From NCBI GenBank assembly GCA_002791275.1, contig PFWT01000009.1, forward strand, positions 211,357-275,356: a DNA stretch of 64,000 nucleotides, given 5' to 3'. Source of the stretch: Candidatus Uhrbacteria bacterium CG_4_9_14_3_um_filter_41_35 (GTDB taxonomy: Bacteria > Patescibacteriota > Patescibacteriia > UBA9934). The translations under genes were made by a program, and so were the position numbers. Position 1 is the stretch's first letter; each line of letters opens with the position of its first letter. Positions 35,885 through 58,816 of the stretch are shown piece by piece. The notes below the pieces were generated by a model. It was not told where the DNA came from and made no database searches. It saw only the letters and a program-made list of their open reading frames with translations.

Positions 35885-36274
35885 GGGCCTGCCAGGAATC
35901 GATGGCAGAATCAGACTACTTTTACAATCAAGTCTGGGGGTGTTCACCCAGTTATAGCCGGACACAAATGACTACACGCAAACGTATTCACACAGGCTCG
36001 TAACGCATTTAGCGTTCAAATGCCTGCTCTAGCACTCGCTTAATAGCTGAGGCTCATCAAACTCGCGACATCTACTAGTGAGATCTTGGTGTTATATAAG
36101 TAGATATGAGCCTTCCCTGCTGACTTTGGAAGAACTCAAGATTTGCAAGTCAGAACTATCCAACATTTTTTCTGCGCTTTATATGTTGGGTTGTAAATAA
36201 GCGCGGATAAACTTGTAAGCAATTGTTTGGGGGTCTCTGACCAGACGGGAGTTCAATTCTCCCCAGGTCCACCA
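35885..36274 (+). ncRNA. ssrA: tmRNA (transfer-messenger RNA)
   Basis: 5' GGGCCUG pairs with 3' CAGGUCC-A-CCA, including a G3·U70 wobble. A T-arm is present (gggagTTCAATTctccc). The internal tag ORF GCA AAC GTA...CTC GCT TAA TAG encodes ANVFTQARNAFSVQMPALALA with tandem stops. Adjacent to smpB. Confidence 0.8.
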
Positions 36275-40215: not shown

Positions 40216-40292
40216 GGACCGGTAGTTCAATTGGTTAGAGCACCGCCCTGTCACGGCGGAAGTTGCGAGTTCGAGTCTCGTCCGGTCCGCCA
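40216..40292 (+). tRNA. tRNA-Asp (anticodon GTC), CCA encoded
   Basis: Cloverleaf with acceptor GGACCGG/CCGGTCC, D-arm TAGTTCAATTGGTTAGAGC, anticodon loop cCTGTCAc and T-arm GCGAGTTCGAGTCTCGT, ending GCCA. Confidence 0.9.
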
Positions 40293-40771: not shown

Positions 40772-42562
40772 ATGACAAAGATCAGCAAGATTTCATCAAT
40801 CATTCTGGGAGTTGGACTTGTTCTTGGTATCGGTGCGCCAAGCAGTTCGTTTGCGGCAACAGACCCTGGATTAGGTGCGGCCTCGACCTTTTCAATCATC
40901 GCCCAAACAGCAATTACCAGAACTGGAACCATTGCTAATGATGTGGGCTTAAATAGCACAGGTGCTGGTATCACAGCGCTCACGGACCTAATGGTTGGTG
41001 GGACTATCTACTCTTCGGATGGAGTGGCACCGAGTACCGCTACGCTTGATCCGAGTGTTCAAGCTAACCTTATAACGGCTAACGGTAATATTTCAGGACA
41101 AGGTTCGACTGCAAGCATTGGTCCAGCGCTTGATGGTTTAAGTCTTGTTCCTGGCGTTTATGACATCGGAGCTGGTCGTCTAAACGGTGGCGTGCTTACT
41201 CTAGATGGAGCTGGAGTCTATATTTTAAGAGCCTCGAGCGACCTTATTTCCTCTGGTTCAATTAATTTTATAAACGGAGCAACAGCTTGTGATGTTTTCT
41301 GGCAAGTTAATTCCCTGGCAACTATCAATGGTAGTTCGTTTGCTGGAACGATTATTGCAGGAACAGGTGTTCATTTTGGGCCTAACGTCACTTTAGCGGG
41401 TAATGCGCTAGCGCTCGGTGGTGACGTAACTTTAAAAAATACAACAATTTCTGCACCAGTTTGTACCGCTGTAGTGCCGTCAACATCAGATATTTATAAC
41501 ACAATTACAGTTATTAAAAATGTTATCAACGATAATGGCGGAACATCTACTTTTAATGATTTCCTTCTTTACGTTGGTGGAACACACGTAACTAGTGGTC
41601 AAAGTGTTCCTTTTCAAGCGGGTACTTATGCTGTGACTGAAACAGGTGTATCTGGTTATTCAGCAACATATAGCGGTGATTGTAACGCAAGCGGTATGAT
41701 TCTTCACGGTGGAGCTAGTACTCGTAACCACATTTGTTTTATTACAAATGATGATATTGGAGCACCCGTAGCGATCCCACCGGTACCACCACTTATTGAT
41801 ATCATTAAGGTTCCAAGTCCAATCAATCTCCCAAATGGGCCCGGTCTTGTAACTTATTCTTTCGCACTCACTAATATTGGAACCGTGCCGGTTACAGATA
41901 TTACTGTAATTGACGACTCATGCAATCCGTTGTTCATTTCTGGCGATCTGAATAATAATAGTGCCCTGGATCTTACCGAAACCTGGAGATATTCTTGTTC
42001 AAAGACCCTGACTGAAACCTACACCAACACCGTTGTAGCAACAGGTTGGGCAAATGGAATTAACGTTAGCGATGTTGCAGACGCAATTGTTACGGTTGGC
42101 ATTCCAGTTGTGCCACCAATAATTCACGTAACAAAAGTTCCAAGTCCACTTATACTCTCAGCTGGTGGTGGCACAGTTACGTACACTAATAAAGTAACTA
42201 ACCCAGGTATAGTTGCTTTAAGTAATATTTATCTTGCAGACGATAAGTGCGAACCTGTTGAATATATCTCCGGTGATATTAATAACGATTCAAAACTTGA
42301 TGTAACAGAGACCTGGACTTACACTTGCCAAACAAATCTAACTACAACTACTATGAACACAATCACCGCGAGTGGTGATGCTAATGGATTGACTGCCAGA
42401 GACTTTGCTAGGGCAACTGTTGTAGTAAACGCTGCTGTTCCGAAGTTACCAAACACTGGAATAACTTCTGCAAAATCAGGTAGCTATACGGGTCTTGTAA
42501 CCGTAAGTCTTTTGACACTCGCTACCCTATTCTACTTGGGTCGAAAGCAACAGCTAATTTAG
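40772..42562 (+). CDS. LPXTG-anchored surface protein with N-terminal ice-binding-like (DUF3494) β-helix domain and two DUF11-type repeats
   Basis: Signal peptide. The motif GAASTFSIIAQTAITRTGTIANDVGLNSTGAGITAL matches the DUF3494 start (GaAanFaVLAgstvTnTG.s.i.GdlGvsPG). Two roughly 80-aa repeats (KVPSP.NL..G.G.VTY...TN.G.V.......DD.C.P...SGD.N....LD.TETW.Y.C) are present. The C-terminus has LPNTG, a hydrophobic segment and GRKQQ. Confidence 0.7.
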   Translation: MTKISKISSIILGVGLVLGIGAPSSSFAATDPGLGAASTFSIIAQTAITRTGTIANDVGLNSTGAGITALTDLMVGGTIYSSDGVAPSTATLDPSVQANLITANGNISGQGSTASIGPALDGLSLVPGVYDIGAGRLNGGVLTLDGAGVYILRASSDLISSGSINFINGATACDVFWQVNSLATINGSSFAGTIIAGTGVHFGPNVTLAGNALALGGDVTLKNTTISAPVCTAVVPSTSDIYNTITVIKNVINDNGGTSTFNDFLLYVGGTHVTSGQSVPFQAGTYAVTETGVSGYSATYSGDCNASGMILHGGASTRNHICFITNDDIGAPVAIPPVPPLIDIIKVPSPINLPNGPGLVTYSFALTNIGTVPVTDITVIDDSCNPLFISGDLNNNSALDLTETWRYSCSKTLTETYTNTVVATGWANGINVSDVADAIVTVGIPVVPPIIHVTKVPSPLILSAGGGTVTYTNKVTNPGIVALSNIYLADDKCEPVEYISGDINNDSKLDVTETWTYTCQTNLTTTTMNTITASGDANGLTARDFARATVVVNAAVPKLPNTGITSAKSGSYTGLVTVSLLTLATLFYLGRKQQLI

Positions 42563-42636
42563 TTGCGGTATGTAAGAGTCAGTTTATAAATGCCAGGCAT
42601 AATTTTGCCTGGCATTTAGCTAGATTTTGAAAAAAT

Positions 42637-43266
42637 ATGCGATCAATAATTACACCAAAAAAAGCTACATATATATTTTTCCCCTCAGGTATAATTCTTT
42701 CTGTTGCCCTTTTACTAAATATTATTCCCCAGAATTCTGTGAATAATAATATAAATCCGACCATAGAAAATAACGTAGTAATTTCTGATGTGGTGCCGGT
42801 AGTAAAACAGATGATTAGTATTGGCTCACCCGTAAGACTTGAAATCCCAGCAATTAACATTAATACTAATATTATTTCCGTAGGATTAACTCCGACTGGC
42901 GCAGTTGCTGTTCCCGATAATCCATTCGAAGTAGCCTGGTACAATCTCGGATCTAAGCCGGGAGAGACCGGTAGTGCAGTTATTGATGGTCATTACGGCT
43001 GGATTAATAACGAACCAGCTGTATTTGATGATTTGAATAAATTAAAAACAGGTGACGAAATTTTTGTCGAAGATAAAAACGGTAGAATTATTAATTTTAA
43101 AGTCCGCGAAATAGCTATTTTCAAAAAAGATGATGATGCCGTAAACGTATTTTTATCAAACGACGGCAAGGCGCACCTCAATCTAATCACCTGCACCGGT
43201 GATTGGAATAAATCAGAAAAAACTTTTTCCGAGCGACTTGTAATATTCAGTGATGTTGCTGAATAA
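42637..43266 (+). CDS. Sortase (class E/F-like transpeptidase)
   Basis: N-terminal TM anchor, the LEIPAININ motif, catalytic His in GHYGW, active-site LNLITCTG (TLxTC) and a conserved Arg region. Located immediately downstream of the LPXTG substrate gene. Confidence 0.8.
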   Translation: MRSIITPKKATYIFFPSGIILSVALLLNIIPQNSVNNNINPTIENNVVISDVVPVVKQMISIGSPVRLEIPAININTNIISVGLTPTGAVAVPDNPFEVAWYNLGSKPGETGSAVIDGHYGWINNEPAVFDDLNKLKTGDEIFVEDKNGRIINFKVREIAIFKKDDDAVNVFLSNDGKAHLNLITCTGDWNKSEKTFSERLVIFSDVAE

Positions 43267-45585: not shown

Positions 45586-46350
45586 CTACCTCTGAAACAA
45601 AACCGTGAAATAGCTCGTTGTAGAGTGAATATCTTCATTTAAGATAATTGCCGAGTTTGAATGATCCAGTTGAATTTGATCATTAGCTCCAAGAATATCC
45701 ATTACCGACAGAAGTGTAATTATTGAAGGTGGTGAATCTAAATAATCACTATTCATTTCTGAAAGTTGGCCATAGTCTTTTTTGAGCATGGCGTCGTACG
45801 TTATCTCATCATTAATATTCGCCTGTTCAAGATTCAAATAATGCGAAAAATCAACGGATGCGATAATCAGAGTATTTTCCCTGGCAAGGACCTGCGCAAG
45901 CTGTGCAGATTCTGAAATACCGTGCCTTGAACTGAGAATAATTGAGACAACCTCCGCCTTCGGAAAATATTCCTGCACATAAGGCAGTAATACTCTAACT
46001 GAATACTCCTCAAACATCACAGAATCGTCCACAGACATATATCCTTCTCTAACAAGCTGTTTTCCAAGGCTGGTACTGAGCGTATCACTATTTATGATCG
46101 CATCAGTATTGCCAAGTTCATAGTGATTCGGGCCGATTAAGATAATCGTTGCAGGATCTGCATTCTGCCTCATTTTCTGAAATGCCTCTTCGATCAAACC
46201 TTCTGCAAGATCGTGGTGAGGCACAATAGCACCCACCACGATTTTACTTTCGGCTCTACTTTCACTATTCAGATTTTGTTTTGTTTTCTCTATCCTGACT
46301 ACCACCATAAGTAGCAAAACAGCTAAAACAAAGACAATTAATTTCTTCAC
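45586..46350 (-). CDS. Memo-family protein (AmmeMemoRadiSam system protein B-like)
   Basis: Signal/TM N-terminus and the motifs GAIVPHHDLA, IILIGPNHY and ASVDFSHY, which resemble the conserved metal-binding motifs of the Memo-family fold. Confidence 0.65.
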   Translation of the reverse strand: MKKLIVFVLAVLLLMVVVRIEKTKQNLNSESRAESKIVVGAIVPHHDLAEGLIEEAFQKMRQNADPATIILIGPNHYELGNTDAIINSDTLSTSLGKQLVREGYMSVDDSVMFEEYSVRVLLPYVQEYFPKAEVVSIILSSRHGISESAQLAQVLARENTLIIASVDFSHYLNLEQANINDEITYDAMLKKDYGQLSEMNSDYLDSPPSIITLLSVMDILGANDQIQLDHSNSAIILNEDIHSTTSYFTVLFQR

Positions 46351-46351
46351 A

Positions 46352-49300
46352 CTATTTTACAGTTATCTCTAGCGCGTCAGAAAAGCTCTGAATGCTAGGA
46401 ACTTTCATTGAATTAATCATGATCGGTTCAACTGTATAAGTTCCCGGATTTGTAACTCTAACGTAATACTTGAAGTAATCACGGCTAGCGTTGTAGCTAC
46501 TAGAATCTGCAGTGAACTTAATTCTTTGACCATCAATTTGGTAAGGATATCGAATTGCTCCCTTTGTTGTATTATCACTATATCTATATGGTCTTGAGAT
46601 AATGCTCATACCGCTTGGAAGAACGTCGGTGATCTGATATTCACCTTCAACGGCATTTTCGATGAATTTAGGGTAAACTCGTACCTCAACAATTCCCCCT
46701 TCTTTAAAGGCATTTGTCTCTACCCCGTCCACGAAATACTTCCTATCTACATCCACATGACTATCATCTATTGAAACATCTTTTAGCGGGACTTCATAGT
46801 GACTTGTTACACCAAGATTTCCTTTAATGTCTAGTAACCGTATTGTGCGTCGCTGTTCCGGAGAAACGCTAATCGTGTGGGTTGAGCCTTTTTCAAGCTC
46901 TACGGTTTCTGTTTTACCATTTACCTCAACCTTAAAGCTCACTGCTCCAGGAACTAGAGTTGGTAGAGTTTTTCCAATAAAGATCGCTCTTTCTAGACTA
47001 ACAAGTCGCTCGTTTGATCTTGCAGTTGCAACATAATTCCATAAAGAATCTTTATGCTCAGCCTGTAATCCAGCTGCCAGCATTGAAGCTAGTGCCGAAG
47101 CTTCAAGAGTCTTATCTTTGTCATCCTCAACGTTAATTCGGATATAGTCTTCATAAGCCTCGCCATTTTCTGCCATGACTTCAGCATATAATGTTCTTGC
47201 ATTTTCTTTATCACCAATTTCCTCTAGCGCAAGCGCAATATAAAGTTTTTCTGTAACTGAAAGATCTTTGATTGCAGCCATATTTTGGATCTTCACAAGC
47301 ACTGGCTCGTTAAGTCCTGCTAATCCCCAAAGTGCCGTAGCAATTTCATCCGTATTCGATTTTTTATTTGCTACAACGTTATAGAAATAGCTCGCAAGCG
47401 CTTCTTTATCAACGTATTTTGCCCCAGCTACTGCTACTTTGGCGCTTAGCACAAGTTCACTGTCAGAATATGGTAGAAGTGAAATACCGCCGCCCTGTTG
47501 ATACAGTGACATATCTACTACATCACCAGTTTTAGGTTCTGCGAAATATGAATCAAGAAGATCCTGCCCGATTTGTCTGCTTAATTTTTGATCAACTCTA
47601 TCTCCATATCCCCATTTTAGTGAACGTAAACTGTTGTACAAACGTCCCTGATTTTCGTCAGAAAAGACAACTGTTGTGCGACCATCTTCCGCTCCGTCTA
47701 CAATCAGATCCTCACTACCAACAGCGAACTTTTGAATAGTTTCCATTAATCTTGATTCTACAACTGAAACTCTGAGTCGTAATGCGTCATTATAATCATA
47801 AGTTGAAGCTCCAAATGTAATACTATGCTCACCAAGTTTATCCGTAAGACTTGGTAGATCAAAGTATGTTGATTTGAAAGCTTTTCCATCCTTCGTCTCT
47901 TCAAGACCCAATGAATCTGACAACACGTTAAACGAGACAGTATCACCAGTTAAAAGTGCCTTACCAAAAGCTCTTACAGCAAAACTTGGCTTATCTGTGG
48001 TTAGATATTCGTCTGCAATAACCACATTAGCAAATATTGGTTTGGTAACTGGTAATTTAGTTACATCAAAACCTGCTTTGATGTCGCTTGAAATTGCCTG
48101 AGTTGTAATTCGCCAGGATGTAATATTGTCTGGCAAAGTGAAAGTAATTTCACCATTTCCGTTTTGATCTGTTTCCAAAGTTTTGAAGACAGCTGCATCC
48201 AAGAATGTTTCGCGAACACTTCCATCACCACCCTTGTCGTTATGAACATAAATATCGTTTGCAAGATAAGTGTGATATGTCTCCACATGGAAGTTGTATA
48301 CGTAAACCGGTTCATGTTTCCATTCGATTGAATCAATTCTCACCGGAAATCCTTCAGAGTTGATTAAAATATCTCCAACTTCAGCGTTTCCAATCACTTG
48401 CCAACCGCCGTTCATATAAACTTTGTGAACCGGAGTTACTTTAAGTGATCCGTTGATAATCATATATTCAGAAACATAGTGCTCAAAAGTTTCAAGAACT
48501 CGGCCTGGAACTAGTGTATTTGATTTTTCACTAAGTCTTGTGAGAATCATATCGCCAGCCTCTATATTCTCAATATTTTTCTTTGAGCCGTCTGCCATCG
48601 TGATCTGTGTTTCTCCTAAGAAGCAACCACCACCCTCGGCTCCACCCGGAATCGTTAATAATCCAGAATACTTATGAGAGAATGAATCGATTATTTCACC
48701 TCCTGGAACTGAAGCGTAAAGATTATCTAAGGTATTAACAGATTCGTTTGAAACCGCGTAATAAGCTTCGTCGACTACATTTACGTTTACGTTAGCTTTT
48801 TTCCCCGCGCCATTTTTATCTACAACTTTTACATTCAGTTTAACCTCTTCGCCCGGTAAATATTCTATTTTTTCAGTTTTTACCTGAATATTTAGTTCGC
48901 TATCCGCAGTATCTAGTTTCGCACCGCTGTAATTGAATTGGTTGCCTGCAATTTTGTATGTTTGTCCATCAAAATATACAGCCTTTAGCACAACGTTAGG
49001 TGCGTGTTTTTGTTCGAAGGTAAACGAATAATCTGCCGAAGAATCAACTTCGTAGGCCCGCAAACCTCTTTGAAGCTGATAGTATAAGAATTTATTTTCA
49101 CCATCTTGAACTCGTTCCTCATTATTTTGTAGCTCAAACTTTGCAAGATCGCCTAGTTTATAGGTCATATCTTTATCAAAGTTTTTTAAGAAGTAATAAT
49201 CACTACTGTATGCAGATCGATATTCAATTGGTGCGTATGCATAAGATGTAGCTTTGTTCATTCTGCCCTCGGCATCGACTACACTGATATTTACTTTGTA

Positions 49301-51943
49301 ACTTTTATCCTGTGTAATTGGGAAATTGTAGTGGTATTCACCGTTACTATCCGAGGTACCACTGAAATTTCCGATCTTATTTTCAATTTTATTATATCTA
49401 TAGGTTTTTCTAACAATTTTATTGATAAAATCGTAATATTCACCAGTTTCAACCCTATTGTATGTGATTTCGATAATGTCTCCTTCAATCCGCAAATCAG
49501 AAACAAGTTCGCCTTCACCACCTGCAAGATCAACGGACCTAACTGTCGCGTTAACTAAAGCAGTTCCGTTATTCCTGATTACCTCCTGATCAATGACGGC
49601 GTTTGCATTGTAAACATTTACGCGTGAGTATTCATTAATTTCTGCAACTTCTGAATTAACTGGACTAACAGATAGAGTCACACTGTTAACCAGGGGACAG
49701 TATGAGCTAGTTAAATTACAGGTTGAGATAACAGGAGTGTATGAAACACTCATCTTTCCGAACTCATCTGTTTTCAGTACCTTATCTACTGCTGATTTTG
49801 AAGTTCCAGAAACACGAACTTTAAATTCTGTATCTGGTAGTGGTGTTCCCTCAAAAAAGTTTGCAGAAATATCAAACTTTACATCTTCGCCAGCAAACAT
49901 AGCAGCCTTCGCTGGTTGAATATCGATACTATAAGCGGGTTTCGTGTAAGTTTGAACGTTGATATAACTACTCTGGATCAAATTGTCACCAACGAAAAAT
50001 TGAAGGTCGTAGTAGCCAGGTGTTGTATTCTCGAGATTAATCGAACCTTCGAAAATTCCATTATTCAAGATTATTTCCTGTTCCTGCAAAACAACATAAT
50101 TGTTATAAAAATCCCTATAACCATTACTTACGAGTTTCACGTGAACTGAATCTGTAGCTTTTAAATCACGATTCTTTACAAATCCCCAATATTTTATTTG
50201 ATCGCCAGGGTGGTACAATGATCTGTCGGTATAAATATACTTCCAATAATCAGATGCAGAGGTCGATGTATTATTATAGTAATAACCATTAAAACGGTTA
50301 AGTACCATAATTAATTCATCATTTCCAGCTTTGATGCTCATGATTTTTTTAAACGCATCTTGGCTGTTAGCATCGATAAGCTTTTCAGTTGCAAAAGTTG
50401 CGATACCAGTACTATTTGTGGTTGCTGTTGTATTATTTTCAGTGAAAGTAAGCTTCGCAGAGACCGTTGGTTGATCTGATTTTACATTATTTACCCAAAC
50501 AAGTGTGTCGGTTTCAGTTACCGTTGCGTAAGCTGAAAGATCCGTAACCTGAATAAATGCTTGTTTATCAAATCGGCTCGCTGACTTATTTTCGAGGACG
50601 TAAAAACCTTTTGGTAAAGACTCTGGCAAGACGAGAAAATGAATCCCGTTATTTACTTCACTAATTGTTTGTATTTCAAGAGTTGCGGTGAATATGCTAG
50701 ACATTTTTGATGTATCTACCAAAAACGCAGATTTTTGGTAGACTGACCAGTCTGGCACTGACATTTTGTCTGAAAGATCTGAAATAAAATCAGTTGAATT
50801 GTTGTATGCGAAAATTTCAACTTCAACTTTTTTTGCTTCTTCGCCGTACGCATAAACTGGGATTGCAATAGTATCTTCAGTTGAATATTGAAGTTCATTT
50901 TCAATAAATGAGACCTTCTGGCGATCATGTTGATTGGCATTATGGGCGCTTGATAATGTTTCAAATTGAAACACGTAATCTTCACCTAGAGTATTTTGAG
51001 AACCAACAACATGTGAAGCTCCGCTAACCGTAACGGTGTACACTGTCCCTTCTGCCAATATTTGAGGTACAAAAACAACTGTTTGACCATGTGTTTCAAA
51101 CCGACCATTCACTTTTGGTGAAATTGTAATGTGATTTTCTACATCTTCAACATTTTCGTGACTAAAAGTAACTTCAATCCCAGTTGAAAGTGGCACATTA
51201 CTTGAGTTCTTTCCTGGTAGCGTGTGTTTTACTTTAAAACTGTCCTTCACTTGAAAAGCCCAAGAATAATCTCTTTCAAAAGAAGTTCCATTTTCTGCAA
51301 TAAATGATGCTGAAATTTCAATATTATAAGTAGTATTGTTTTCAAGTGTCTTAATCGGTGTAACTTTAAAGGTGTGATCGTCGATTACCTCAAAAGTAAA
51401 TTCAGCTCGTGGGCTAAGCGAAATATTTTCTTTTAGTATTTCTGAATCCAAAGCCCCTTTGCTGGTGATAATAAAGCTGGTGTCCGCCTCGACTCCGGTT
51501 GAATCACCGCTTACTGGTTCAATTTCGAAATTATCCTGCGCGTAAGCAGGATCAAGAATCAAACGAGAAAACTCGCCAAATGGGCTAGATGGATTATTCC
51601 TTACTCCTGGCCAGTATTGAAATGTTGTGGCCACAATTGCAACGATTAACAAGCTAGAAACACCAACAACAACTCGCTGGTGGTGAAAACTTGCGAAAAA
51701 CGACATTATTTGCTTATTCATACTTTTTTCTGTTGAAGATGCTCTTTCGGTTCGTCTTGCCCGCAATATGTCCTGTTCTAGCTTTTCTTTGAAGTTAGAA
51801 GATGCGAGATGCGAATCCTGAGCATGCGTTATTAATTTATCTCTTACATTCAATAACGCACAAAGCTCAGGATCATTACAATCCTGCATTTGTTCCTTTG
51901 CCTTTAGAGCTTTTTCAAGCTTTTTTGCTTTTTTATTAAACAT
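46352..51943 (-). CDS. Giant (1863 aa) anti-sigma-factor-like membrane protein with extracytoplasmic Ig/MG-domain array, Hint/BIL domain, alpha-2-macroglobulin domain and thioester-less TED-like domain
   Basis: An N-terminal roughly 110-aa cytoplasmic segment (C-x5-C) precedes a TM helix (VVVGVSSLLIVAIVATTF). Many β-rich repeats follow. The Hint domain runs GGG|CFLGETQI...VYNFHVETYHTYLANDIYVHN. The A2M signature is RETFLDAAVFKTLETDQNGNGEITFTLPDNITSWRITTQAISS (cf. FPETWLW...FTLPDSITTWR). The TED-like region (LYQQGGGISL, LWGLAGL) has GYGD where the thioester CGEQ is expected. The start overlaps the ECF sigma gene stop by 8 nt. Confidence 0.7.
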   Translation of the reverse strand: MFNKKAKKLEKALKAKEQMQDCNDPELCALLNVRDKLITHAQDSHLASSNFKEKLEQDILRARRTERASSTEKSMNKQIMSFFASFHHQRVVVGVSSLLIVAIVATTFQYWPGVRNNPSSPFGEFSRLILDPAYAQDNFEIEPVSGDSTGVEADTSFIITSKGALDSEILKENISLSPRAEFTFEVIDDHTFKVTPIKTLENNTTYNIEISASFIAENGTSFERDYSWAFQVKDSFKVKHTLPGKNSSNVPLSTGIEVTFSHENVEDVENHITISPKVNGRFETHGQTVVFVPQILAEGTVYTVTVSGASHVVGSQNTLGEDYVFQFETLSSAHNANQHDRQKVSFIENELQYSTEDTIAIPVYAYGEEAKKVEVEIFAYNNSTDFISDLSDKMSVPDWSVYQKSAFLVDTSKMSSIFTATLEIQTISEVNNGIHFLVLPESLPKGFYVLENKSASRFDKQAFIQVTDLSAYATVTETDTLVWVNNVKSDQPTVSAKLTFTENNTTATTNSTGIATFATEKLIDANSQDAFKKIMSIKAGNDELIMVLNRFNGYYYNNTSTSASDYWKYIYTDRSLYHPGDQIKYWGFVKNRDLKATDSVHVKLVSNGYRDFYNNYVVLQEQEIILNNGIFEGSINLENTTPGYYDLQFFVGDNLIQSSYINVQTYTKPAYSIDIQPAKAAMFAGEDVKFDISANFFEGTPLPDTEFKVRVSGTSKSAVDKVLKTDEFGKMSVSYTPVISTCNLTSSYCPLVNSVTLSVSPVNSEVAEINEYSRVNVYNANAVIDQEVIRNNGTALVNATVRSVDLAGGEGELVSDLRIEGDIIEITYNRVETGEYYDFINKIVRKTYRYNKIENKIGNFSGTSDSNGEYHYNFPITQDKSYKVNISVVDAEGRMNKATSYAYAPIEYRSAYSSDYYFLKNFDKDMTYKLGDLAKFELQNNEERVQDGENKFLYYQLQRGLRAYEVDSSADYSFTFEQKHAPNVVLKAVYFDGQTYKIAGNQFNYSGAKLDTADSELNIQVKTEKIEYLPGEEVKLNVKVVDKNGAGKKANVNVNVVDEAYYAVSNESVNTLDNLYASVPGGEIIDSFSHKYSGLLTIPGGAEGGGCFLGETQITMADGSKKNIENIEAGDMILTRLSEKSNTLVPGRVLETFEHYVSEYMIINGSLKVTPVHKVYMNGGWQVIGNAEVGDILINSEGFPVRIDSIEWKHEPVYVYNFHVETYHTYLANDIYVHNDKGGDGSVRETFLDAAVFKTLETDQNGNGEITFTLPDNITSWRITTQAISSDIKAGFDVTKLPVTKPIFANVVIADEYLTTDKPSFAVRAFGKALLTGDTVSFNVLSDSLGLEETKDGKAFKSTYFDLPSLTDKLGEHSITFGASTYDYNDALRLRVSVVESRLMETIQKFAVGSEDLIVDGAEDGRTTVVFSDENQGRLYNSLRSLKWGYGDRVDQKLSRQIGQDLLDSYFAEPKTGDVVDMSLYQQGGGISLLPYSDSELVLSAKVAVAGAKYVDKEALASYFYNVVANKKSNTDEIATALWGLAGLNEPVLVKIQNMAAIKDLSVTEKLYIALALEEIGDKENARTLYAEVMAENGEAYEDYIRINVEDDKDKTLEASALASMLAAGLQAEHKDSLWNYVATARSNERLVSLERAIFIGKTLPTLVPGAVSFKVEVNGKTETVELEKGSTHTISVSPEQRRTIRLLDIKGNLGVTSHYEVPLKDVSIDDSHVDVDRKYFVDGVETNAFKEGGIVEVRVYPKFIENAVEGEYQITDVLPSGMSIISRPYRYSDNTTKGAIRYPYQIDGQRIKFTADSSSYNASRDYFKYYVRVTNPGTYTVEPIMINSMKVPSIQSFSDALEITVK
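48240..48625 (-). other. Hint (Hedgehog/intein-like) / bacterial intein-like (BIL) domain embedded in the giant protein
   Basis: An N-terminal Cys follows GGG (CFLGET). C-terminal block HTYLANDIYVHN is followed by Asp rather than Cys, Ser or Thr. This pattern favours a BIL-type domain over a canonical intein. Confidence 0.6.
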
Positions 51944-52505
51944 ATTTGCTATATTCTTCCTTAAATCTTGTTAGTGCTCTGTGAACCTTCACACCAGCGT
52001 TATTTCCTGAAATTTGCAGAACGTTAGCGATTTCATCATTACTGAGCTCGCCAAAAAACTTTAATTGTATAATTTCTTGCTCTTTTTCCTTCAATCTACT
52101 CAATACTTCCCGGATTTTCACGTTTTCTATCGATCTATCTGTAAGCAGTTCCGGCGCAAGTTCACCTGACTCAAGATGATGTATTTCCTCAATATCAACC
52201 TCTATTCGCCGACCTTTTTTCCGATAATGATCAATAATCGTGTTCGTAGCGATACGATACAACCAAGCTTTAAACGAACCAGTGCCTTTTTTGTAGGTAT
52301 CAAGCTTTGTAAAAGCTTTCATGAACGTTTGTGAAACTAAATCTTCTGTTGTTTGGCAGTGCCCGACCCTCTTTGCTGTATAGCCGTAAATTTTTTTAAA
52401 ATAAAATTCATACAAAACACCAAAAGCTTCGTCGTTTACCCTTGCTCTTTCAACAAGTTCTTCTTCGTTTTCAAGCACACTTTGATTTATATTTTTCTCC
52501 TCCAT
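51936..52505 (-). CDS. ECF-type RNA polymerase sigma factor (sigma-70 family, group 4)
   Basis: Region 2 (VLYEFYFKKIYGYTAKRV...EDLVSQTFMKAF) and region 4 HTH (EIANVLQISGNNAGVKVHRALTRFKE). 189 aa. Confidence 0.8.
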   Translation of the reverse strand: MEEKNINQSVLENEEELVERARVNDEAFGVLYEFYFKKIYGYTAKRVGHCQTTEDLVSQTFMKAFTKLDTYKKGTGSFKAWLYRIATNTIIDHYRKKGRRIEVDIEEIHHLESGELAPELLTDRSIENVKIREVLSRLKEKEQEIIQLKFFGELSNDEIANVLQISGNNAGVKVHRALTRFKEEYSKYV

Positions 52506-53439: not shown

Positions 53440-53913
53440 ATGGATCAAGCAGAACTCCAAAATATAGCAAAACAAATATTTTCTACTATGCCAACTATGT
53501 TTCACGCTGTTATGCGAATGGCGCGTGAGGAAAATTTTGGTTTAGCGCCGAATCAGTTAAAAATCCTGAAGTTTCTGCAAGTTAATTCCGCTAAGCCTAA
53601 TATGATTGCAAAAATGCTTCAGGTGAGCGCCCCGACGGTTTCTGGGGCAATTGAAACCTTAGTTCAAAAGGGTTTAGTTCATAGAGTACCATCTACAACT
53701 GACCGGCGGGTTATTAATTTACACTTAACGCAGGCAGGTGGTGATCTCCTTGAGTCAGCCGAAAATAAAATGATGATCGCCGTTTCAAAAAAACTTGGAG
53801 TGCTTTCTGACGAAAAATTAGTTGAGATCGCTGAGTCTATTCGACTTCTTGAGAAGGTTTTCAGAAAACCTGGTAGCTCAGGATCCGAACTTGAAAACGA
53901 GTGCATAAACTAA
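53440..53913 (+). CDS. MarR-family transcriptional regulator
   Basis: Winged HTH (LAPNQLKILKFLQVNSAKPNMIAKMLQVSAPTVSGAIETLVQKGLVHRVPSTTDRRV). Confidence 0.8.
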   Translation: MDQAELQNIAKQIFSTMPTMFHAVMRMAREENFGLAPNQLKILKFLQVNSAKPNMIAKMLQVSAPTVSGAIETLVQKGLVHRVPSTTDRRVINLHLTQAGGDLLESAENKMMIAVSKKLGVLSDEKLVEIAESIRLLEKVFRKPGSSGSELENECIN

Positions 53914-53948
53914 ACTCACACCAAAATCAATATTCTAGATCAATTAAT

Positions 53949-55736
53949 ATGAAAAATTTCCTAAATTTACACTCAAAAATAATTATAGCTACTGGAGCAC
54001 TTGCCGTTTTAGCTGTCATAATATTTTCGTTTCTGAATTCAGATAAATCTGTTGATGCAGAAACCGATGCGAGTAATAATCTTACAACCCTCAAAGTTGC
54101 TGATTATCAGTCAGCCGTAGACACCGTGTACTCAAGCGGTGAAGTGATTTCTGAAAATCAAGCTACGATTAGAAGCGAGGCCTCTTCGCCCATTGAAGAC
54201 TTTTACATAGAAATCGGCGACCGGGTGCAGACTGGAGATTTACTGGTTGCTTTCAGGCACGATGATTTGAACGCACAATTAACCCAGGCCAATGCTGCAG
54301 TGACGCGAGCTAAAACCGCGCTTGAAGCTCAACAGATGGGAGCTAAAGAAGAGGACAAAGAAAAGGCCAGACTTGCAGTTGAGCAGGCTAAGCTTGGGTT
54401 AACGCAAGCGACTTTGAATTTGAATCAAATTAAATTAGCGCAAACTAGTTCTGAAAATGCTGTTAATGAGGGAATTCAACAATTGTACAAAACAAGTTTA
54501 AGTACGCTTGACGCAAGTGAGCAAACACTGGTCGATTCCTTGGCAACCATCTCGGATTTACAAGTTGATTATTTTAACTGTTCCTCTGATCAAATCTGCT
54601 ACGTAATTGGCAAAGAAAAAGGCACAGCTATTAAAACCTACTTTGCTAAAGAAGGTGCTGATAAATGGAACGCAACTAGCGTTCGCGGGATAAACTCTGG
54701 CTACGCTGAGAAATTAGCTAATTTAAAAATAGCCGAAGCGCCAGACTGGATACTTCGTAGTGAAATTTTAGCTGCACAAATTGTAACTTTGAAACACATT
54801 CAAGCATCACTCACAGCAATTCAAGAAGGTTTTACCCAACCAGTCGCTAACCAAGCGTCTGCTAGCGCTCAAGCCAATACGGCCACAACTTTAGCTACAG
54901 TGAATGCTAAAATTAGTGTTCTTGAAAGTTTACAAACTTCGATAAACGAAGCTGAAGGTTTTGGTTTAGTTGGAGGTGAACCAAAATCTATCGATGACGC
55001 TAAACGTCAGGCCTACCTAGCTATTACTACCGCTGAAACAGCGGTAACAAACGCTACGGTAGCTGTACAGATGTCAGAGCAAACACTTGCTCAAATTGAA
55101 AATGGTCCGCGAGCTATTGATCTTCGACCTTTTGAAATTGGTGTGATTGAAGCCGAGGCAAATTATGCAAATGTTACATCTCAACTACGCCGAGTAATGG
55201 TACGTGCGCCTTTTGACGGTATTATTTCAAGTTTGTCTGGCAATGTTGGTGAGCTAGTTCCCGCTGGACAGCCACTTGTTACAATTGTTGAGCCGAATTT
55301 GATTGAAATTAAAGCTTACGTAAGTGACAAAGATCTTGGAAGTTTTGATCTGCATTCTTCGGTTAAAATTAATGGTAAGAACGACGGCGTGTTAACTTTT
55401 ATTTCACCAAGTATTGATCCGCAAACTCGAAAAGTTGAGGTACATATAGCTGTTTTAGATGAGGCTTCGCTTCTGATTGGTCAATATGTTGATATTGAAA
55501 TCGGAAGTACAAATAAAGAAAAAAGTAAATATTATTTACCGCTTGAGAGTGTAAAACAGTCTCAACTTGGTTCTGTGGTCTACCGTATAAATTCAGATAA
55601 TTTAATGGAAGAAATTCCCGTTGTGACCGGTGACGTGATTGGAGAAACTATCGAGATTACAAGTGGGCTTAATATAGGCGACGAACTAGTTGTTAATGCT
55701 AGAACCGCCAAAGCTGGTAACAGGGTAAGCAAGTAA
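53949..55736 (+). CDS. Efflux transporter periplasmic adaptor subunit (membrane fusion protein, HlyD/RND-MFP family) with extended coiled-coil
   Basis: N-terminal TM helix, a biotinyl-lipoyl-like half (IEIGDRVQTGDLLVAF), a long α-helical hairpin, and a β-barrel/MP domain (VMVRAPFDGIISSL). Start chosen at MKNFLN so that it does not overlap marR. Confidence 0.7.
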   Translation: MKNFLNLHSKIIIATGALAVLAVIIFSFLNSDKSVDAETDASNNLTTLKVADYQSAVDTVYSSGEVISENQATIRSEASSPIEDFYIEIGDRVQTGDLLVAFRHDDLNAQLTQANAAVTRAKTALEAQQMGAKEEDKEKARLAVEQAKLGLTQATLNLNQIKLAQTSSENAVNEGIQQLYKTSLSTLDASEQTLVDSLATISDLQVDYFNCSSDQICYVIGKEKGTAIKTYFAKEGADKWNATSVRGINSGYAEKLANLKIAEAPDWILRSEILAAQIVTLKHIQASLTAIQEGFTQPVANQASASAQANTATTLATVNAKISVLESLQTSINEAEGFGLVGGEPKSIDDAKRQAYLAITTAETAVTNATVAVQMSEQTLAQIENGPRAIDLRPFEIGVIEAEANYANVTSQLRRVMVRAPFDGIISSLSGNVGELVPAGQPLVTIVEPNLIEIKAYVSDKDLGSFDLHSSVKINGKNDGVLTFISPSIDPQTRKVEVHIAVLDEASLLIGQYVDIEIGSTNKEKSKYYLPLESVKQSQLGSVVYRINSDNLMEEIPVVTGDVIGETIEITSGLNIGDELVVNARTAKAGNRVSK

Positions 55737-55738
55737 GT

Positions 55739-58700
55739 ATGTGGAATTTTCTAGTTATACATCAAAAATTTACAATCATAATTATTCTCGCACTAACAAT
55801 TGCGGGGCTTGTTTCCGTAAACCAGCTACCAAAAGAATCAGCTCCGGAGGTAAATATTCCGTTCATCATTGTCTCTACGCCATTTCCAGGCGCAAACGCT
55901 CTTGATGTTGAAAGTTTCGTTACCAACAAAATTGAGGACAATGTTTCTAGCATTGAGGGACTGAAAAATTTAACCTCAACTTCAGCACTTGGTATGTCGA
56001 GTGTAGCGCTTGAGTTTAATGTTGGAGTTGATATTGATAAAAAACTCACTGAAGTAAAGGATGCGACAGATATAGCTAAGCTTGAATTTCCAAGTGATGC
56101 CAAAGATCCGCTTGTTGCCAATGTTAACTTTAACGATACACCGATAAAAACTTACGCTTTGGCTGGCCCTTACAGCCGTGGTGAATTGCAACTTTTTGCT
56201 GAAGAATTAAAAAGTAAACTTGATCAATTGCCAAACGTAGACAGTATTAGTCTAAGCGGTGGCGATAGTGAGCAGGTGCAAATCCTGATTGAGCAGCGCA
56301 GACTTGATCAGTTCGAGCTTTCACTGAACCAAGTTGTGCGAGCTATTCAGTCAGCAAACAGCAATATTCCAATCGGAAGCATTGAGTCGAGCAATAGTGA
56401 TATTTCTGTTCGTTTTGATGGCACAATCAATACTATTAACGACCTTAAAAGAATTCCGCTTAGCCTGAAAAATGGTGCGCCAATTTTTGTTTCCGATGTC
56501 GCTGAAGTTATTTACGGAACTGAAGATAAAACCTCGAGTTCATATTTAAGTACCGATAACAAAGTTTCAAACCCTGCCATATCAATCAGTATTGTGAAAT
56601 CGCCAGGTGGAGATATTTTAAAGCTCGTTAAAAAAGCAGATGAAATAATCTATAGTTCAATTGGCACCACCCTACCAGAGGATCTTCAGGTAGAAGTTAT
56701 TGACGACAGTGCCGAACAAATTAAAGCTGATCTAGGTAACCTAAGTATGAGTGGTCTTGAGACCACTCTGATCGTTACGCTTCTGATTTTCTTCACACTC
56801 GGTTGGCGCGAGGCAATTTTGACTTCACTTTCGATCCCGCTAACTTTCCTGATTACTTTTCTAACCCTGGATTTATTCGGCTACACTCTTAACTTTTTAA
56901 CTCTATTCGCATTAATTCTGGCGCTAGGAATTTTAGTTGACGGTGTAATCGTGATCACGGAAGGTTTGCACTCAAATATCAACAAAGGCTTACCACCAAC
57001 CAAGGCTGCACTTGCAACCATTGCTGAGTTTGAAAAACCACTTATTGCCGGTACCCTAACAACTATTTTTGCTTTCGTACCAATGCTTCTTACCTCTGGA
57101 ATGATCGGACAGTTCATTAAATCAATCCCCGTAACTGTGAGTATCGTTCTCTTCTCCTCGCTCTTTATCGCGCTTGGCGTTATTCCAACACTAGGCACTT
57201 CCCTACTTGGATTGAAGACAAAACCTGGCAAATTTAAGACTCTAACAGATAAGCTTGAGAGTTTTAGAGAAAATTCTATTTTTTATCTACAAAATATTTA
57301 CTCAGGGATAATTGATAAATTCCTGTACTCAAAACCCGCACGAAAAAGTCTTGCTATAATTTTGACTTTTGCTTTTGTGGGATCGCTCGCACTGCCAGCG
57401 CTTGGAATTTTGAAGGTTGATATGTTCCCAAGCAGTGATACTGAGCGCGTATACATTGATTTTTCCTTACCTCAAGGGACTGCACTTTTTGCAACTGAAA
57501 AAACAATGACTGAAGTTGAAAAATATTTGCATAATAAGTCTGAAATAAAATCTTATTTAATTAGCAGCGGAGCCGGTTCTTCGCTCGGTGGTGGTACTGG
57601 TTCAAATATCGGTTCGGTAAATATTAACCTTACTGAAGAGAGACGCGATAGCCGAAAGATTACCGCTGAAATTGAACGTGAAATTACGAGCCTGGTACCT
57701 GAAGCAACCATTTCCGTTGCGCAATTGAGCAGTGGTCCGCCTTCTGGCGCTCCGGTTGAGATTTCTATTGCTGGTCAAGATCTACAGACACTTGAACAAA
57801 TTGCCGAAGAGTTCAAAAAAATTATTACTGAAATTCCAGGCACAAAATCCGTGACAACTTCGGTAGTGAATACTTCTGGAGAGTTTGTATACACCATTAA
57901 CCGCGCAGTTGTAGCCAGATATGGGTTGTCGCCAACTGAAGTGGCGACAACTATGCGAACTGCTTTGTTTGGTAGCACTGTGGCAACTCTTAGTCTAAAC
58001 GGTAACGACATTGATGTTGTAGCAACCTATAAACTAAGCGAAAATGACACTAAACGAAATGCGATTGAAATCGCAAAACTTTCGAGTATCACCATGCAAA
58101 CGCAGTTTGGTGATATTCCAATTTCCACATTCCTAGATACGAATTTGAAACCAAGTCAGGCCTCAATTCCGCACAAGGATGGTGAACGAATTGTAACAGT
58201 CACTGCTGATGTTGAACTTGGTGTTGTGGCGCAGGATGTTTTTACTGAAGTTAAAAAAGAGATGGTAAAAATTGATATTCCCGGCAAATACACCGTAAAA
58301 CTCGGTGGGCAAAATGATGACATCACGCAGTCGTTCACGGACATGGCTAAAGCTATGGTGCTCGGCATCTTTATGATCGCCGGACTGCTTGTTTTGCAGT
58401 TTAATTCATACAAACAACCACTCATCGTCCTCTCCAGTATTCCGCTCGCACTGATCGGGGTTTTACCCGGACTCGTGATTGTGAACCAGACGCTGTCGTT
58501 CCCGGGAGTCATTGGTGTAGTGGCACTTGCCGGAATTGTGGTGAATAACGGGATTATCCTAATTGACCGAATTAACGAAAATCGTCTCGCTGGCATGGAG
58601 ATTCTAATTGCTGTAAAAGAATCAACCATGAGCAGATTAAGGCCAATTCTACTAACAACCATCACAACGGTAGCAGGCCTAGTCCCGCTAGTAATCAGTC

Positions 58701-58816
58701 AACCCGAATGGGCTTCCCTTGGTTACGCTATTATCTTCGGACTAATCTTCTCCACGGTTTCGACTTTGATTGTGGTACCGCTCCTTTACGCAGGGATTGA
58801 GAAACATAGAAAATAA
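55739..58816 (+). CDS. RND-family efflux transporter permease (AcrB/HAE-type)
   Basis: 1025 aa with 12 TM helices, two large periplasmic loops and typical RND motifs (GIVVNNGIILIDRINE). Confidence 0.85.
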   Translation: MWNFLVIHQKFTIIIILALTIAGLVSVNQLPKESAPEVNIPFIIVSTPFPGANALDVESFVTNKIEDNVSSIEGLKNLTSTSALGMSSVALEFNVGVDIDKKLTEVKDATDIAKLEFPSDAKDPLVANVNFNDTPIKTYALAGPYSRGELQLFAEELKSKLDQLPNVDSISLSGGDSEQVQILIEQRRLDQFELSLNQVVRAIQSANSNIPIGSIESSNSDISVRFDGTINTINDLKRIPLSLKNGAPIFVSDVAEVIYGTEDKTSSSYLSTDNKVSNPAISISIVKSPGGDILKLVKKADEIIYSSIGTTLPEDLQVEVIDDSAEQIKADLGNLSMSGLETTLIVTLLIFFTLGWREAILTSLSIPLTFLITFLTLDLFGYTLNFLTLFALILALGILVDGVIVITEGLHSNINKGLPPTKAALATIAEFEKPLIAGTLTTIFAFVPMLLTSGMIGQFIKSIPVTVSIVLFSSLFIALGVIPTLGTSLLGLKTKPGKFKTLTDKLESFRENSIFYLQNIYSGIIDKFLYSKPARKSLAIILTFAFVGSLALPALGILKVDMFPSSDTERVYIDFSLPQGTALFATEKTMTEVEKYLHNKSEIKSYLISSGAGSSLGGGTGSNIGSVNINLTEERRDSRKITAEIEREITSLVPEATISVAQLSSGPPSGAPVEISIAGQDLQTLEQIAEEFKKIITEIPGTKSVTTSVVNTSGEFVYTINRAVVARYGLSPTEVATTMRTALFGSTVATLSLNGNDIDVVATYKLSENDTKRNAIEIAKLSSITMQTQFGDIPISTFLDTNLKPSQASIPHKDGERIVTVTADVELGVVAQDVFTEVKKEMVKIDIPGKYTVKLGGQNDDITQSFTDMAKAMVLGIFMIAGLLVLQFNSYKQPLIVLSSIPLALIGVLPGLVIVNQTLSFPGVIGVVALAGIVVNNGIILIDRINENRLAGMEILIAVKESTMSRLRPILLTTITTVAGLVPLVISQPEWASLGYAIIFGLIFSTVSTLIVVPLLYAGIEKHRK

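Follow-up and report, generated by a model that had tools for sequence, protein, structure and literature searches.

A bacterial intein-like Hint domain at the predicted bait-region position of a thioester-less macroglobulin-like protein in Patescibacteria

We analysed a 64,000-nucleotide window of the genome of Candidatus Uhrbacteria bacterium CG_4_9_14_3_um_filter_41_35 (contig PFWT01000009.1, assembly GCA_002791275.1, contig positions 211,357 to 275,356); all positions below are those of the window. A single intact open reading frame on the minus strand (46352..51943) encodes a membrane-anchored, thioester-less protein of 1863 amino acids (aa) related to alpha-2-macroglobulin (A2M). Within it lies a 129-aa Hint domain assigned to the type-A bacterial intein-like (BIL) group (48239..48625, minus strand; aa 1107-1235), identified from Pfam, profile matches in the PDB, an AlphaFold2 (AF2) model and Foldseek. 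The initial annotation had described a segment of about 129 aa between an array of MG/Ig-like domains and the A2M signature; the segment is real, is 129 aa long and lies between the Pfam domains A2M_BRD and A2M (PF00207). Of the coordinates first proposed for it, 48240-48625, the end was correct and the start was one base off, the domain reaching to 48239.

All four splicing blocks were found in the segment, which reads GGG/CFLGETQITMADG at one end (Cys1107) and VYNFHVETYHTYLANDIYVHN/D at the other (Asn1235, then Asp1236), as had been recognised when these ends were first called A- and G-blocks of a Hint domain. On the minus strand, block A (CFLGETQITMADG, 48587-48625) starts at Cys1107, block B (TPVH, 48425-48436) is T1170-P-V-H1173 and so has the T-x-x-H form, block F is VYNFHVETYHTYLAN (48257-48301), and block G (IYVHN, 48239-48253) ends in H1234-N1235, with Asp1236 at +1. 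The comparison with Pfam profiles, which the initial annotation had proposed, recovered the Hint domain clearly. The Pfam model PT-HINT (PF07591) matched with an E value of 9.1e-13 (49.1 bits, cut-off 27.7) and Vint (PF14623) also scored above its cut-off (32 bits against 27), while the matches to Intein_splicing, Hint and Hom_end_hint were all under threshold. Among PDB sequences, the best phmmer match of the whole protein was 2LWY, a 'bacterial intein-like domain' (E 2.6e-10). A profile of 41 aligned Hint-bearing family sequences (A1) matched the BIL domains 6Y75 (BIL2, 2.6e-18), 2LWY (3.7e-18) and 6TMM (also ~3e-18), followed by the Rhs pre-toxin Hint domain 8W20 (1e-13) and, more weakly, classical mini-inteins (~1e-10). 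The AF2 model of aa 1095-1250 had a mean predicted local distance difference test score (pLDDT) of 88.6, with the Hint core above 90. Its top Foldseek matches were 6Y75 (E 6e-13, TM-score 0.77-0.80) and 2LWY (root-mean-square deviation 1.9 A); the next neighbours after the BILs were the DnaB, gp41-1 and RecA mini-inteins and the Hedgehog autoprocessing domain, and more than 50 Hint structures were matched with probability 1.0 and TM-scores up to 0.84. These results confirm, far beyond chance, that aa 1107-1235 are a Hint domain, and its nearest solved relatives by both sequence and fold are BIL domains, not classical inteins.

Type-A BILs are defined as Hint domains that end in His-Asn, lack a +1 nucleophile and form no branched intermediate (PMC4031507). 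Their products arise mainly by N- and C-cleavage, low-yield ligation of the flanks by aminolysis being possible (PMC4031507, PMC7664689), and one +1 substitution to Ser or Cys makes BILs efficient splicers (PMC7664689). The domain studied here has every testable feature of the type-A definition, and Asp1236 sets it apart from canonical class-1 inteins, which have Cys, Ser or Thr at +1. The earlier preference for a BIL over a self-splicing intein therefore holds: the nearest PDB entries are BILs, and both the query and ~96% of the 100 family members carry a residue at +1 that cannot act as a nucleophile. Like 2LWY of Clostridium thermocellum and 6Y75/6TMM (BIL2 of Tetrahymena BUBL1), the domain has blocks A, B, F and G, Cys1 and His-Asn without a +1 nucleophile, and it shares with type-A BILs a secreted or surface-located, fast-evolving bacterial host protein. 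In contrast to them, it is fixed in one host protein and at one insertion site across a superphylum, at a mechanistically meaningful position.

Class-1 mini-inteins (Mtu RecA, Ssp/Npu DnaB, gp41-1) resemble the domain in fold, size and the catalytic residues at both ends, but differ from it in the +1 Asp, in the non-housekeeping host, in the lack of a homing endonuclease and in the strength of the match (1e-10 compared with 1e-18 to BILs). The setting is also not that of a canonical intein: the host is a divergent surface protein, the 129-aa Hint contains no endonuclease, and acquisition was single. Pre-toxin HINT domains (PF07591) provide the best Pfam model, and the Rhs toxin 8W20 is matched by the profile at 1e-13. 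However, the Hint is followed here by A2M PF00207, a TED-like region and bMG10 rather than by a toxin domain, the C-extein being the alpha'NT-MG-CUB-TED-like-MG10 half of the protein. Position 4 of block F (aa 1217, ~48293-48295, minus strand) is an invariant Asn (VYNF/VYNL). Class-1 inteins usually have Asp at this position (VYDL), and the Asn might bias the domain to cleavage over coupled splicing.

The host protein is 100% identical to the hypothetical protein COV92_00850 of Candidatus Uhrbacteria bacterium CG11_big_fil_rev (NCBI). Pfam recognises Big_5, MG2, A2M_BRD, A2M and bMG10 in it, and profile matches of the family in the PDB include C5, human A2M, CD109, ECAM, SaA2M and TEP1. The protein starts with a cytoplasmic extension, a putative sigma-binding (anti-sigma) segment (51680..51943, minus strand; aa 1-88), followed by a single predicted transmembrane helix (51614..51676, minus strand; ~aa 90-110) at the sole hydropathy peak of its kind (window peak 2.17). 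At the other end, a bMG10 domain (receptor-binding or CTMG-like; 46406..46732, minus strand; aa 1738-1846) scored 26.4 bits against a Pfam cut-off of 26.2, and this region aligns to the C-termini of canonical bacterial A2Ms. The sequence GYGDRVDQ (47588..47611, minus strand; aa 1445-1452) appears to be a degenerate thioester site, where canonical A2Ms have PYGC(T/L)EQ. Because the family profile aligns GYGDRVDQ to YPYGCTEQ of the canonical homologue P0118, we infer a retained TED-like region; this assignment comes from a local profile alignment to canonical homologues, whereas the C-terminal 628 aa, searched in the PDB as a single sequence, had no more than a marginal A2M match. The protein holds only five cysteines, and neither the query nor the 25 family members inspected, Hint-less ones among them, contain a CxEQ thioester. 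The VRETF motif after the Hint is the conserved R..F plug of the alpha'NT, a feature of the superfamily. We accordingly class the host, from its MG array, BRD/LNK and C-terminal MG10, as a thioester-less member of the A2M/complement superfamily. Automated annotation already contains the pieces, in precomputed Pfam lists and in one NCBI name, 'polymorphic toxin-type HINT domain-containing protein' (homologue P0010), which derives from the name of the model and nothing else.

Bacterial A2Ms, whether thioester-containing type I proteins (ECAM/YfhM, SaA2M) or type II proteins (MagD/YfaS), share with the host the MG array, BRD/LNK, the RxxF motif of the alpha'NT, a TED-like region and MG10. The lack of a thioester is shared with type II (PMC5764988). 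The host differs from both types in having a monoderm-type N-terminal transmembrane anchor instead of a lipoprotein signal, in Big_5 and the Hint, and in an anti-sigma-like N-terminus and a sigma/Memo gene cassette in place of pbpC or a mag operon.

The domains on either side of the Hint define its position in the host. Upstream on the minus strand are A2M_BRD (48755..49165; aa 927-1063; Pfam E 5e-17), corresponding to MG5/MG6-beta plus LNK and aligning to C5 525-627, and a flexible linker at the bait-like end of the LNK region (48626..48697; aa 1083-1106), which ends in GAEGGG with Gly1106 at -1. Downstream on the same strand, the C-extein starts with an alpha'NT-like segment, D-K-GGDGS-V-R-ET-F-LDA (48194..48238; aa 1236-1250), containing Asp at +1, Lys at +2 and the RxxF plug, and continues into the PF00207 region (MG6-alpha/MG7; 48026..48190; aa 1252-1306; Pfam E 1.4e-7; LPDNITSWR motif), which aligns to human A2M 729-812 and C5 785-842. 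At this site Hint-bearing proteins read ...GAEGGG/C...HN/DKGG..RE.F.D..., and the Hint-less sequence is ...GAEGGG-GGD..R.DF.D..., most of these homologues having 0-1 residues at the columns of the Hint. Compared in this way, the two groups show that the Hint interrupts a short conserved Gly-rich loop. Some Hint-less homologues are longer at these columns, with ~30 extra residues in a Clostridia-type subgroup and up to ~36 aa. The comparison of orthologues with and without the segment, also proposed at the outset, thus identified it as an insertion and not an Ig/MG domain, because most Hint-less homologues have 0-1 residues in the same columns; together with the Hint fold found by Foldseek, this rules out an ordinary MG/Ig domain.

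A profile of aa 915-1330 with the Hint deleted (A2) was searched against PDB sequences, the insertion point lying between profile positions 188 and 189. Positions 58-162 and 215-272 align to C5 525-627 and 785-842, respectively, positions 191-273 to human A2M 729-812, and positions 91-272 to ECAM. The unaligned gap of C5 (residues 628-784) contains the beta/alpha (furin) processing site together with C5a. The Arg at position 194 and the Phe at position 197 do not vary among Hint-bearing and Hint-less members and match R732 and F735 of human A2M, the two conserved residues of the alpha'NT, which threads the MG2-MG3-LNK channel (PMC9352918). The C-junction of the Hint lies 5-8 residues upstream of this RxxF plug. 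In the local alignment of the A2 profile to E. coli YfhM, the Gly-rich loop falls on F947-G-G-D-G-D952, and the pre-Hint linker aligns to the ECAM bait region around R941-G949. The disordered segment of ECAM that is cleaved by proteases is Arg923-Leu942; once it has been cut, Arg956, Gly958 and Asn963 dock onto the MG domain at the C-terminus (PMC4498604). Residues 956-963 lie beyond F947, which puts F947-GGDGD between the cleaved segment (923-942) and the docking residues (956-963). A context model of aa 1000-1345 (pLDDT 78.8) had a confident Hint core and two linkers predicted to be flexible (aa 1083-1104 and 1238-1249, pLDDT <50), in keeping with a linker of the bait type and an alpha'NT that is not threaded. 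Foldseek matched this model to BILs plus ECAM, SaA2M, C3 and A2Moo, with 5A42, 4U48 and 7S62 among the structures listed. The alignments indicate that the insertion occupies the bait-region position, which is also the place of the anaphylatoxin (ANA) domain of C3/C5. The placement at the bait region in the initial annotation is thereby supported, the site mapping to the ECAM bait region beside F947-GGDGD and just upstream of human A2M residue 729.

Complement C3/C4/C5 likewise have a folded domain of comparable size between LNK and alpha'NT, at the same point of MG6, and this insert is flanked by a maturation cut on its N-side and an activating cut on its C-side, before the alpha'NT. However, the complement insert has an unrelated fold, is cut by external proteases (furin, convertases) and is released as a signalling peptide, whereas the junctions in the Hint-bearing host carry their own predicted chemistry. 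In Hint-less members (P0041-43, P0053-P0116) a short and conserved run rich in glycine, GAEGGGGGD, forms the 'bait'; it resembles FGGDGDE of ECAM (YfhM 947-952), which in turn resembles the Gly-rich stretch at the Hint insertion site. Classical A2Ms, by contrast, have baits that are long and hypervariable. Glycyl-glycine (M23) endopeptidases would be suited to a Gly-Gly target, and at one Hint-less locus (L003) a LysM-Peptidase_M23 gene adjoins the gene cassette described below.

A full-length homologue search yielded ~50 Hint-bearing clusters (28-52% identity, 1740-1930 aa) and ~65 Hint-less clusters, ~130 aa shorter. The Hint set was enlarged with a hidden Markov model search of 1.84 billion cluster representatives (51,993 matches at E<1e-3), giving 100 A2M-context Hints, of which 97 were recognised by the downstream R..F.D motif and 3 were recovered from the Hint tree. 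A scan of GTDB, with one genome per species, confirmed 410 related stretches, and genome counts given here refer to the best 80 loci. Alignments were made locally with MAFFT, with sub-alignments A1-A3. The insert was 129-130 aa long in all 51 Hint-bearing sequences, and the best 80 species-genome loci all carried a 129-130-aa C...HN Hint in the same place. Invariant in A1 (n=41) were Cys1, Phe2, the block-A Thr, the block-B Thr and His, block-F residues including H/T, and V-H-N, as well as Lys at +2 and the Arg and Asp of the motif after the Hint. Cys1 and HN were each present in 97/97 A2M-context Hints, and likewise in 100% of the full set of 100. The -1 residue was Gly in 95/97. At +1 the 97 sequences had D56, E17, Q14, S3, A3, G1, N1, T1 and I1, that is, D/E/Q in 87/97 and S/T in 4/97; the 80 species genomes were similar (D39, E25, Q8, A3, S3, N2). 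Lys occurred at +2 in 96/100 and at +3 in 4/100. The Hint was more conserved than its host, with a mean pairwise distance of 0.51 compared with 0.63. The catalytic set is under strong constraint.

The best 80 loci were labelled as Uhr-, Magasanik-, Peregrini-, Peri-, Gracili-, Moran-, Nomura-, Collier- and Gottesmanbacteria, other Patescibacteria, unclassified, and a few others such as 'uncultured Gammaproteobacteria'; the Hint-carrying family spans hundreds of Patescibacteria. Several loci (L009, L014, L015, L018, L020 and others) have a Patescibacteria-type gene in metagenome-assembled genomes titled 'uncultured Gammaproteobacteria' or 'Nanoarchaeia archaeon', titles that are probably taxonomic mislabels of submitted bins. 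In a neighbour-joining (NJ) tree of the host with the Hint columns removed, Hint-bearing members were not monophyletic (0/100 bootstraps), and the Hint-less trio P0041-43 was nested inside a purely Hint-bearing clade (100/100 bootstraps). In a tree of 307 Hints, all 100 A2M-context Hints fell on one side of a single split from 207 other BILs (best-split Jaccard 0.97, moderate bootstrap support); three apparent intruders in this split were A2M-context Hints that the regular expression had missed. Since the A2M-context Hints all group together, apart from the 207 BILs, we rejected multiple independent acquisitions as the principal cause of the non-monophyly. Pairwise distances of Hint and host were correlated (Spearman 0.70), the GC content of the Hint (0.377) was that of the gene (0.379), and its GC at third codon positions was inside the gene's range; a recent horizontal insertion was rejected on these grounds. 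The simplest reading is that the Hint was acquired once, long ago, was inherited vertically and was then cleanly lost, or exchanged within the family, several times.

The closest non-A2M relatives of the Hint (P0121, P0124, P0128, P0131, P0150) carry 2-11 tandem BIL copies, joined by linkers consisting only of K-G(-G...), as in ..VHN/KG/CF.. and ..HN/GKGGGG/CF.., and one of these tandem-BIL relatives has a type IV pilin-like N-terminus. The +1 residue is Lys in 142/207 non-A2M BILs. The family Hint differs from these mostly +1-Lys, tandemly arrayed domains in its acidic or amide +1 residue and in having Lys at +2 or +3.

The gene for the A2M-like protein belongs to a cassette of three genes on the minus strand (45586-52505). 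An ECF sigma factor gene (51936..52505; Pfam Sigma70_r2/r4_2/ECF; TIGR02937 107.7 bits, cut-off 42.9) lies upstream in the same orientation, with an 8-nucleotide overlap between its stop and the A2M-like start. A Memo-like gene of the AmmeMemoRadiSam system protein B type (45586..46350; Pfam Memo E 1e-17; TIGR04336 85 bits, cut-off 26) follows immediately downstream as the third member. The whole cassette was conserved with and without the Hint, in the Hint-bearing loci L001 and L006 and in the Hint-less L003 (Kerfeldbacteria); L005 had the sigma gene alone beside the homologue, L002 had Memo alone, and neither was found beside the Vallitalea homologue. Among the 80 species genomes, sigma lay upstream in at least 44 and Memo downstream in at least 51. 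In members whose context was fetched, a sigma neighbour went with a long cytoplasmic extension, and members with no sigma neighbour had no extension. The query has the 88-aa extension followed by the transmembrane helix, and its aa 1-88 had no Pfam match; the N-terminus of homologue P0104 matched zf-HC2 (26.8 bits, cut-off 22.2). The initial annotation had suggested that the Hint could signal to an anti-sigma N-terminus. The anti-sigma part of this idea is supported by the overlap with the sigma gene and by zf-HC2 in P0104, but the link to the Hint is the weakest part of the earlier interpretation, as the long extension was present and absent in 26 and 24 Hint-bearing members and in 21 and 41 Hint-less members. 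Because the Hint and the extension are distributed almost independently, the Hint is not an obligatory part of sigma signalling.

The observed domain identity, conservation of catalytic residues, exact insertion site, single origin and genomic context are the basis on which we infer a function. A2M with a bait replaced by Gly/Ser residues stays native, a bait that is cut but held continuous by a disulfide gives no trigger, and triggering follows loss of continuity upstream of the alpha'NT (PMC9352918). The ANA domain of complement factors has the furin cut on its N-terminal side and the activating cut on its C-terminal side (PMC9352918). By analogy, once the ectodomain was exported and the Hint had folded, Cys1107 would carry out an N-S acyl shift on the Gly1106-Cys1107 bond to form a Gly1106 thioester, and cyclisation of Asn1235 would cut the Asn1235-Asp1236 bond. 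Since the +1 residue is Asp, no branched ester would form, and cleavage or excision uncoupled from ligation would be the main outcome instead of canonical splicing. Backbone continuity would then be lost at the very site that has to be cleaved before A2M-family proteins can change conformation, leaving two chains, a membrane-anchored MG1-LNK half and an alpha'NT-MG-CUB-TED-like-MG10 half. The N-junction would be the topological counterpart of the furin site and the C-junction that of the convertase or bait cut, and cleavage at the C-junction would free the alpha'NT without an external protease. The outcome might be two-chain maturation, a conformational change fired independently of proteases, or both. 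Firing may be constitutive (maturation) or conditional (sensing); the reactions and their relative rates, like the conformational change downstream of them, are predictions. Self-excision or self-cleavage of the Hint that breaks the chain at the A2M activation site is the most likely function, to which we give an even chance. The proposal of the initial annotation that self-cleavage is an alternative trigger of conformational change is plausible on this basis.

Several points weigh against a self-cleaving bait. The trees are distance-based NJ trees only. Conservation of the catalytic residues would be equally expected of a passenger that removes itself and ligates the flanks, and so is by itself no proof of cleavage that benefits the host. 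Aminolysis, or an isopeptide formed by the Lys at +2 or +3, could by analogy with other BILs restore continuity. The host protein can work without the Hint, as the nesting of the Hint-less P0041-43 among Hint-bearing members shows. If constitutive, cleavage would preclude a spring-loaded native state, unless the N-junction were cut first. A competing account, a tolerated intein-like passenger without added function, is possible but less probable. The Hint would excise and the flanks would be ligated, by aminolysis through the alpha-amine of Asp1236 or by attack of the epsilon-amine of Lys1237 on the Gly1106 thioester, to regenerate the Gly-rich loop. Such ligation would give AEGGG-DKGG..R..F, close to AEGGG-GGD..R..F of Hint-less proteins, and the chemistry of both junctions is conserved, as full excision needs. 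The nested Hint-less lineages and the non-monophyly of Hint-bearers are a gain/loss pattern typical of inteins. Splicing by aminolysis is possible for type-A BILs (PMC4031507), and BUBL BIL2 makes Lys isopeptides (PMC8616854), with Lys at +2 or +3 in 100/100 family Hints. However, a +1 Ser or Cys would give efficient splicing (PMC7664689), yet S/T make up only ~4% and D/E/Q are strongly preferred; that ~96% of a divergent family keeps a non-nucleophile at +1 argues against selection for efficient ligation. Type-A BILs that have been tested yield mostly cleavage products (PMC4031507), and a passenger also fits poorly with the missing homing endonuclease, the single acquisition, the fully ameliorated composition and a Hint more conserved than its host.

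The remaining explanations are less probable again. In one, which we consider unlikely, the Gly1106-Cys1107 thioester is resolved by an external nucleophile, for instance a lysine on a protease that attacks the cell, an amine in the cell wall or a molecule on the surface of the host cells, on which these bacteria live as episymbionts. The membrane-anchored N-terminal half, with ...GGG at its end, would thereby be linked covalently to the target, replacing the lost CxEQ. Together with Asn cyclisation freeing the alpha'NT and firing the macroglobulin conformational change, this would be an ATP-independent, intein-chemistry version of thioester capture by A2M/C3, a combination we hold to be equally unlikely. 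BUBL BIL2, the closest structural neighbour, attaches its N-extein to lysines of other proteins and needs no ATP to do so (PMC8616854), and the Hedgehog Hint moves its N-extein onto cholesterol (PMC7664689); in the family, CxEQ is missing, the homologous site is degenerate (GYGDRVDQ), and the N-extein ends in an exposed, flexible Gly-Gly-Gly. But attachment would not need Asn cyclisation, and His-Asn is 100% conserved; the acceptor is hypothetical; and since Hint-less members also lack CxEQ, the Hint is not a required compensation for its loss. Somewhat more doubtful is an autoproteolytic site-1 step, in which Hint cleavage would shed the distal ectodomain and so license degradation of the anti-sigma segment and release of the ECF sigma factor. 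The overlap of the sigma gene with the A2M-like gene, the recurrence of this arrangement (L001, L003, L005, L006 and 44/80 genomes) and zf-HC2 in the N-terminus of one homologue fit such a step. It is contradicted by the near independence of Hint and extension (26/24 and 21/41), by P0092, a Hint-bearing member that lacks both the sigma gene and the extension, and by P0068 and P0104, which have the sigma gene but no Hint; in addition, ~1000 extracytoplasmic residues would stay on the membrane fragment, unlike known site-1 products. We regard as very improbable a catalytically silent folded plug, cut off like ANA by an external protease. The Hint does occupy the ANA position, between flexible linkers that a protease could cut, but all residues for the N-S acyl shift and Asn cyclisation are conserved over hundreds of divergent sequences, and a purely structural role is disfavoured because it would not maintain them.

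Our literature searches for a link between a macroglobulin and a Hint domain, BIL or intein found nothing relevant. What BILs do for the cell has been obscure ever since they were described; in this one host family, a single BIL lineage occupies a fixed site in hundreds of Patescibacteria species with invariant catalytic residues, which makes the family a clean system for asking what BIL autoprocessing is for. It is also a natural experiment on the A2M trigger, the loss of continuity upstream of the alpha'NT plug, and a possible case of protease-independent, possibly conditional, macroglobulin activation. As a very large conserved surface protein of the candidate phyla radiation (CPR), often coupled to an ECF sigma factor, it bears on envelope sensing or defence in minimal host-dependent cells. 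Covalent attachment through the Gly1106 thioester, if true, would be the first physiological role for BIL domains in bacteria. The 129-aa Hint with its Gly(-1)/Asp(+1) junction may also serve as a cleavage tag.

Three other features were observed elsewhere in the window. At 35885-36274 (plus strand), Rfam found a full-length tmRNA (82 bits, E 2e-30), while ARAGORN gave only a tRNA-Asp (40216-40292) and no tmRNA. At 40772-43266 (plus strand), a gene for a 596-aa surface protein (Ice_binding-like, SpaA-like, DUF7507) is followed by a sortase gene, and the product of this region is possibly a sortase-dependent surface or pilus protein in a CPR genome. At 53440-58816 (plus strand), an operon encodes a MarR regulator, an HlyD-type membrane-fusion protein and an AcrB-type RND pump (1025 aa); RND pumps are usually tied to an outer membrane, and the source bacterium is generally thought to be without one.

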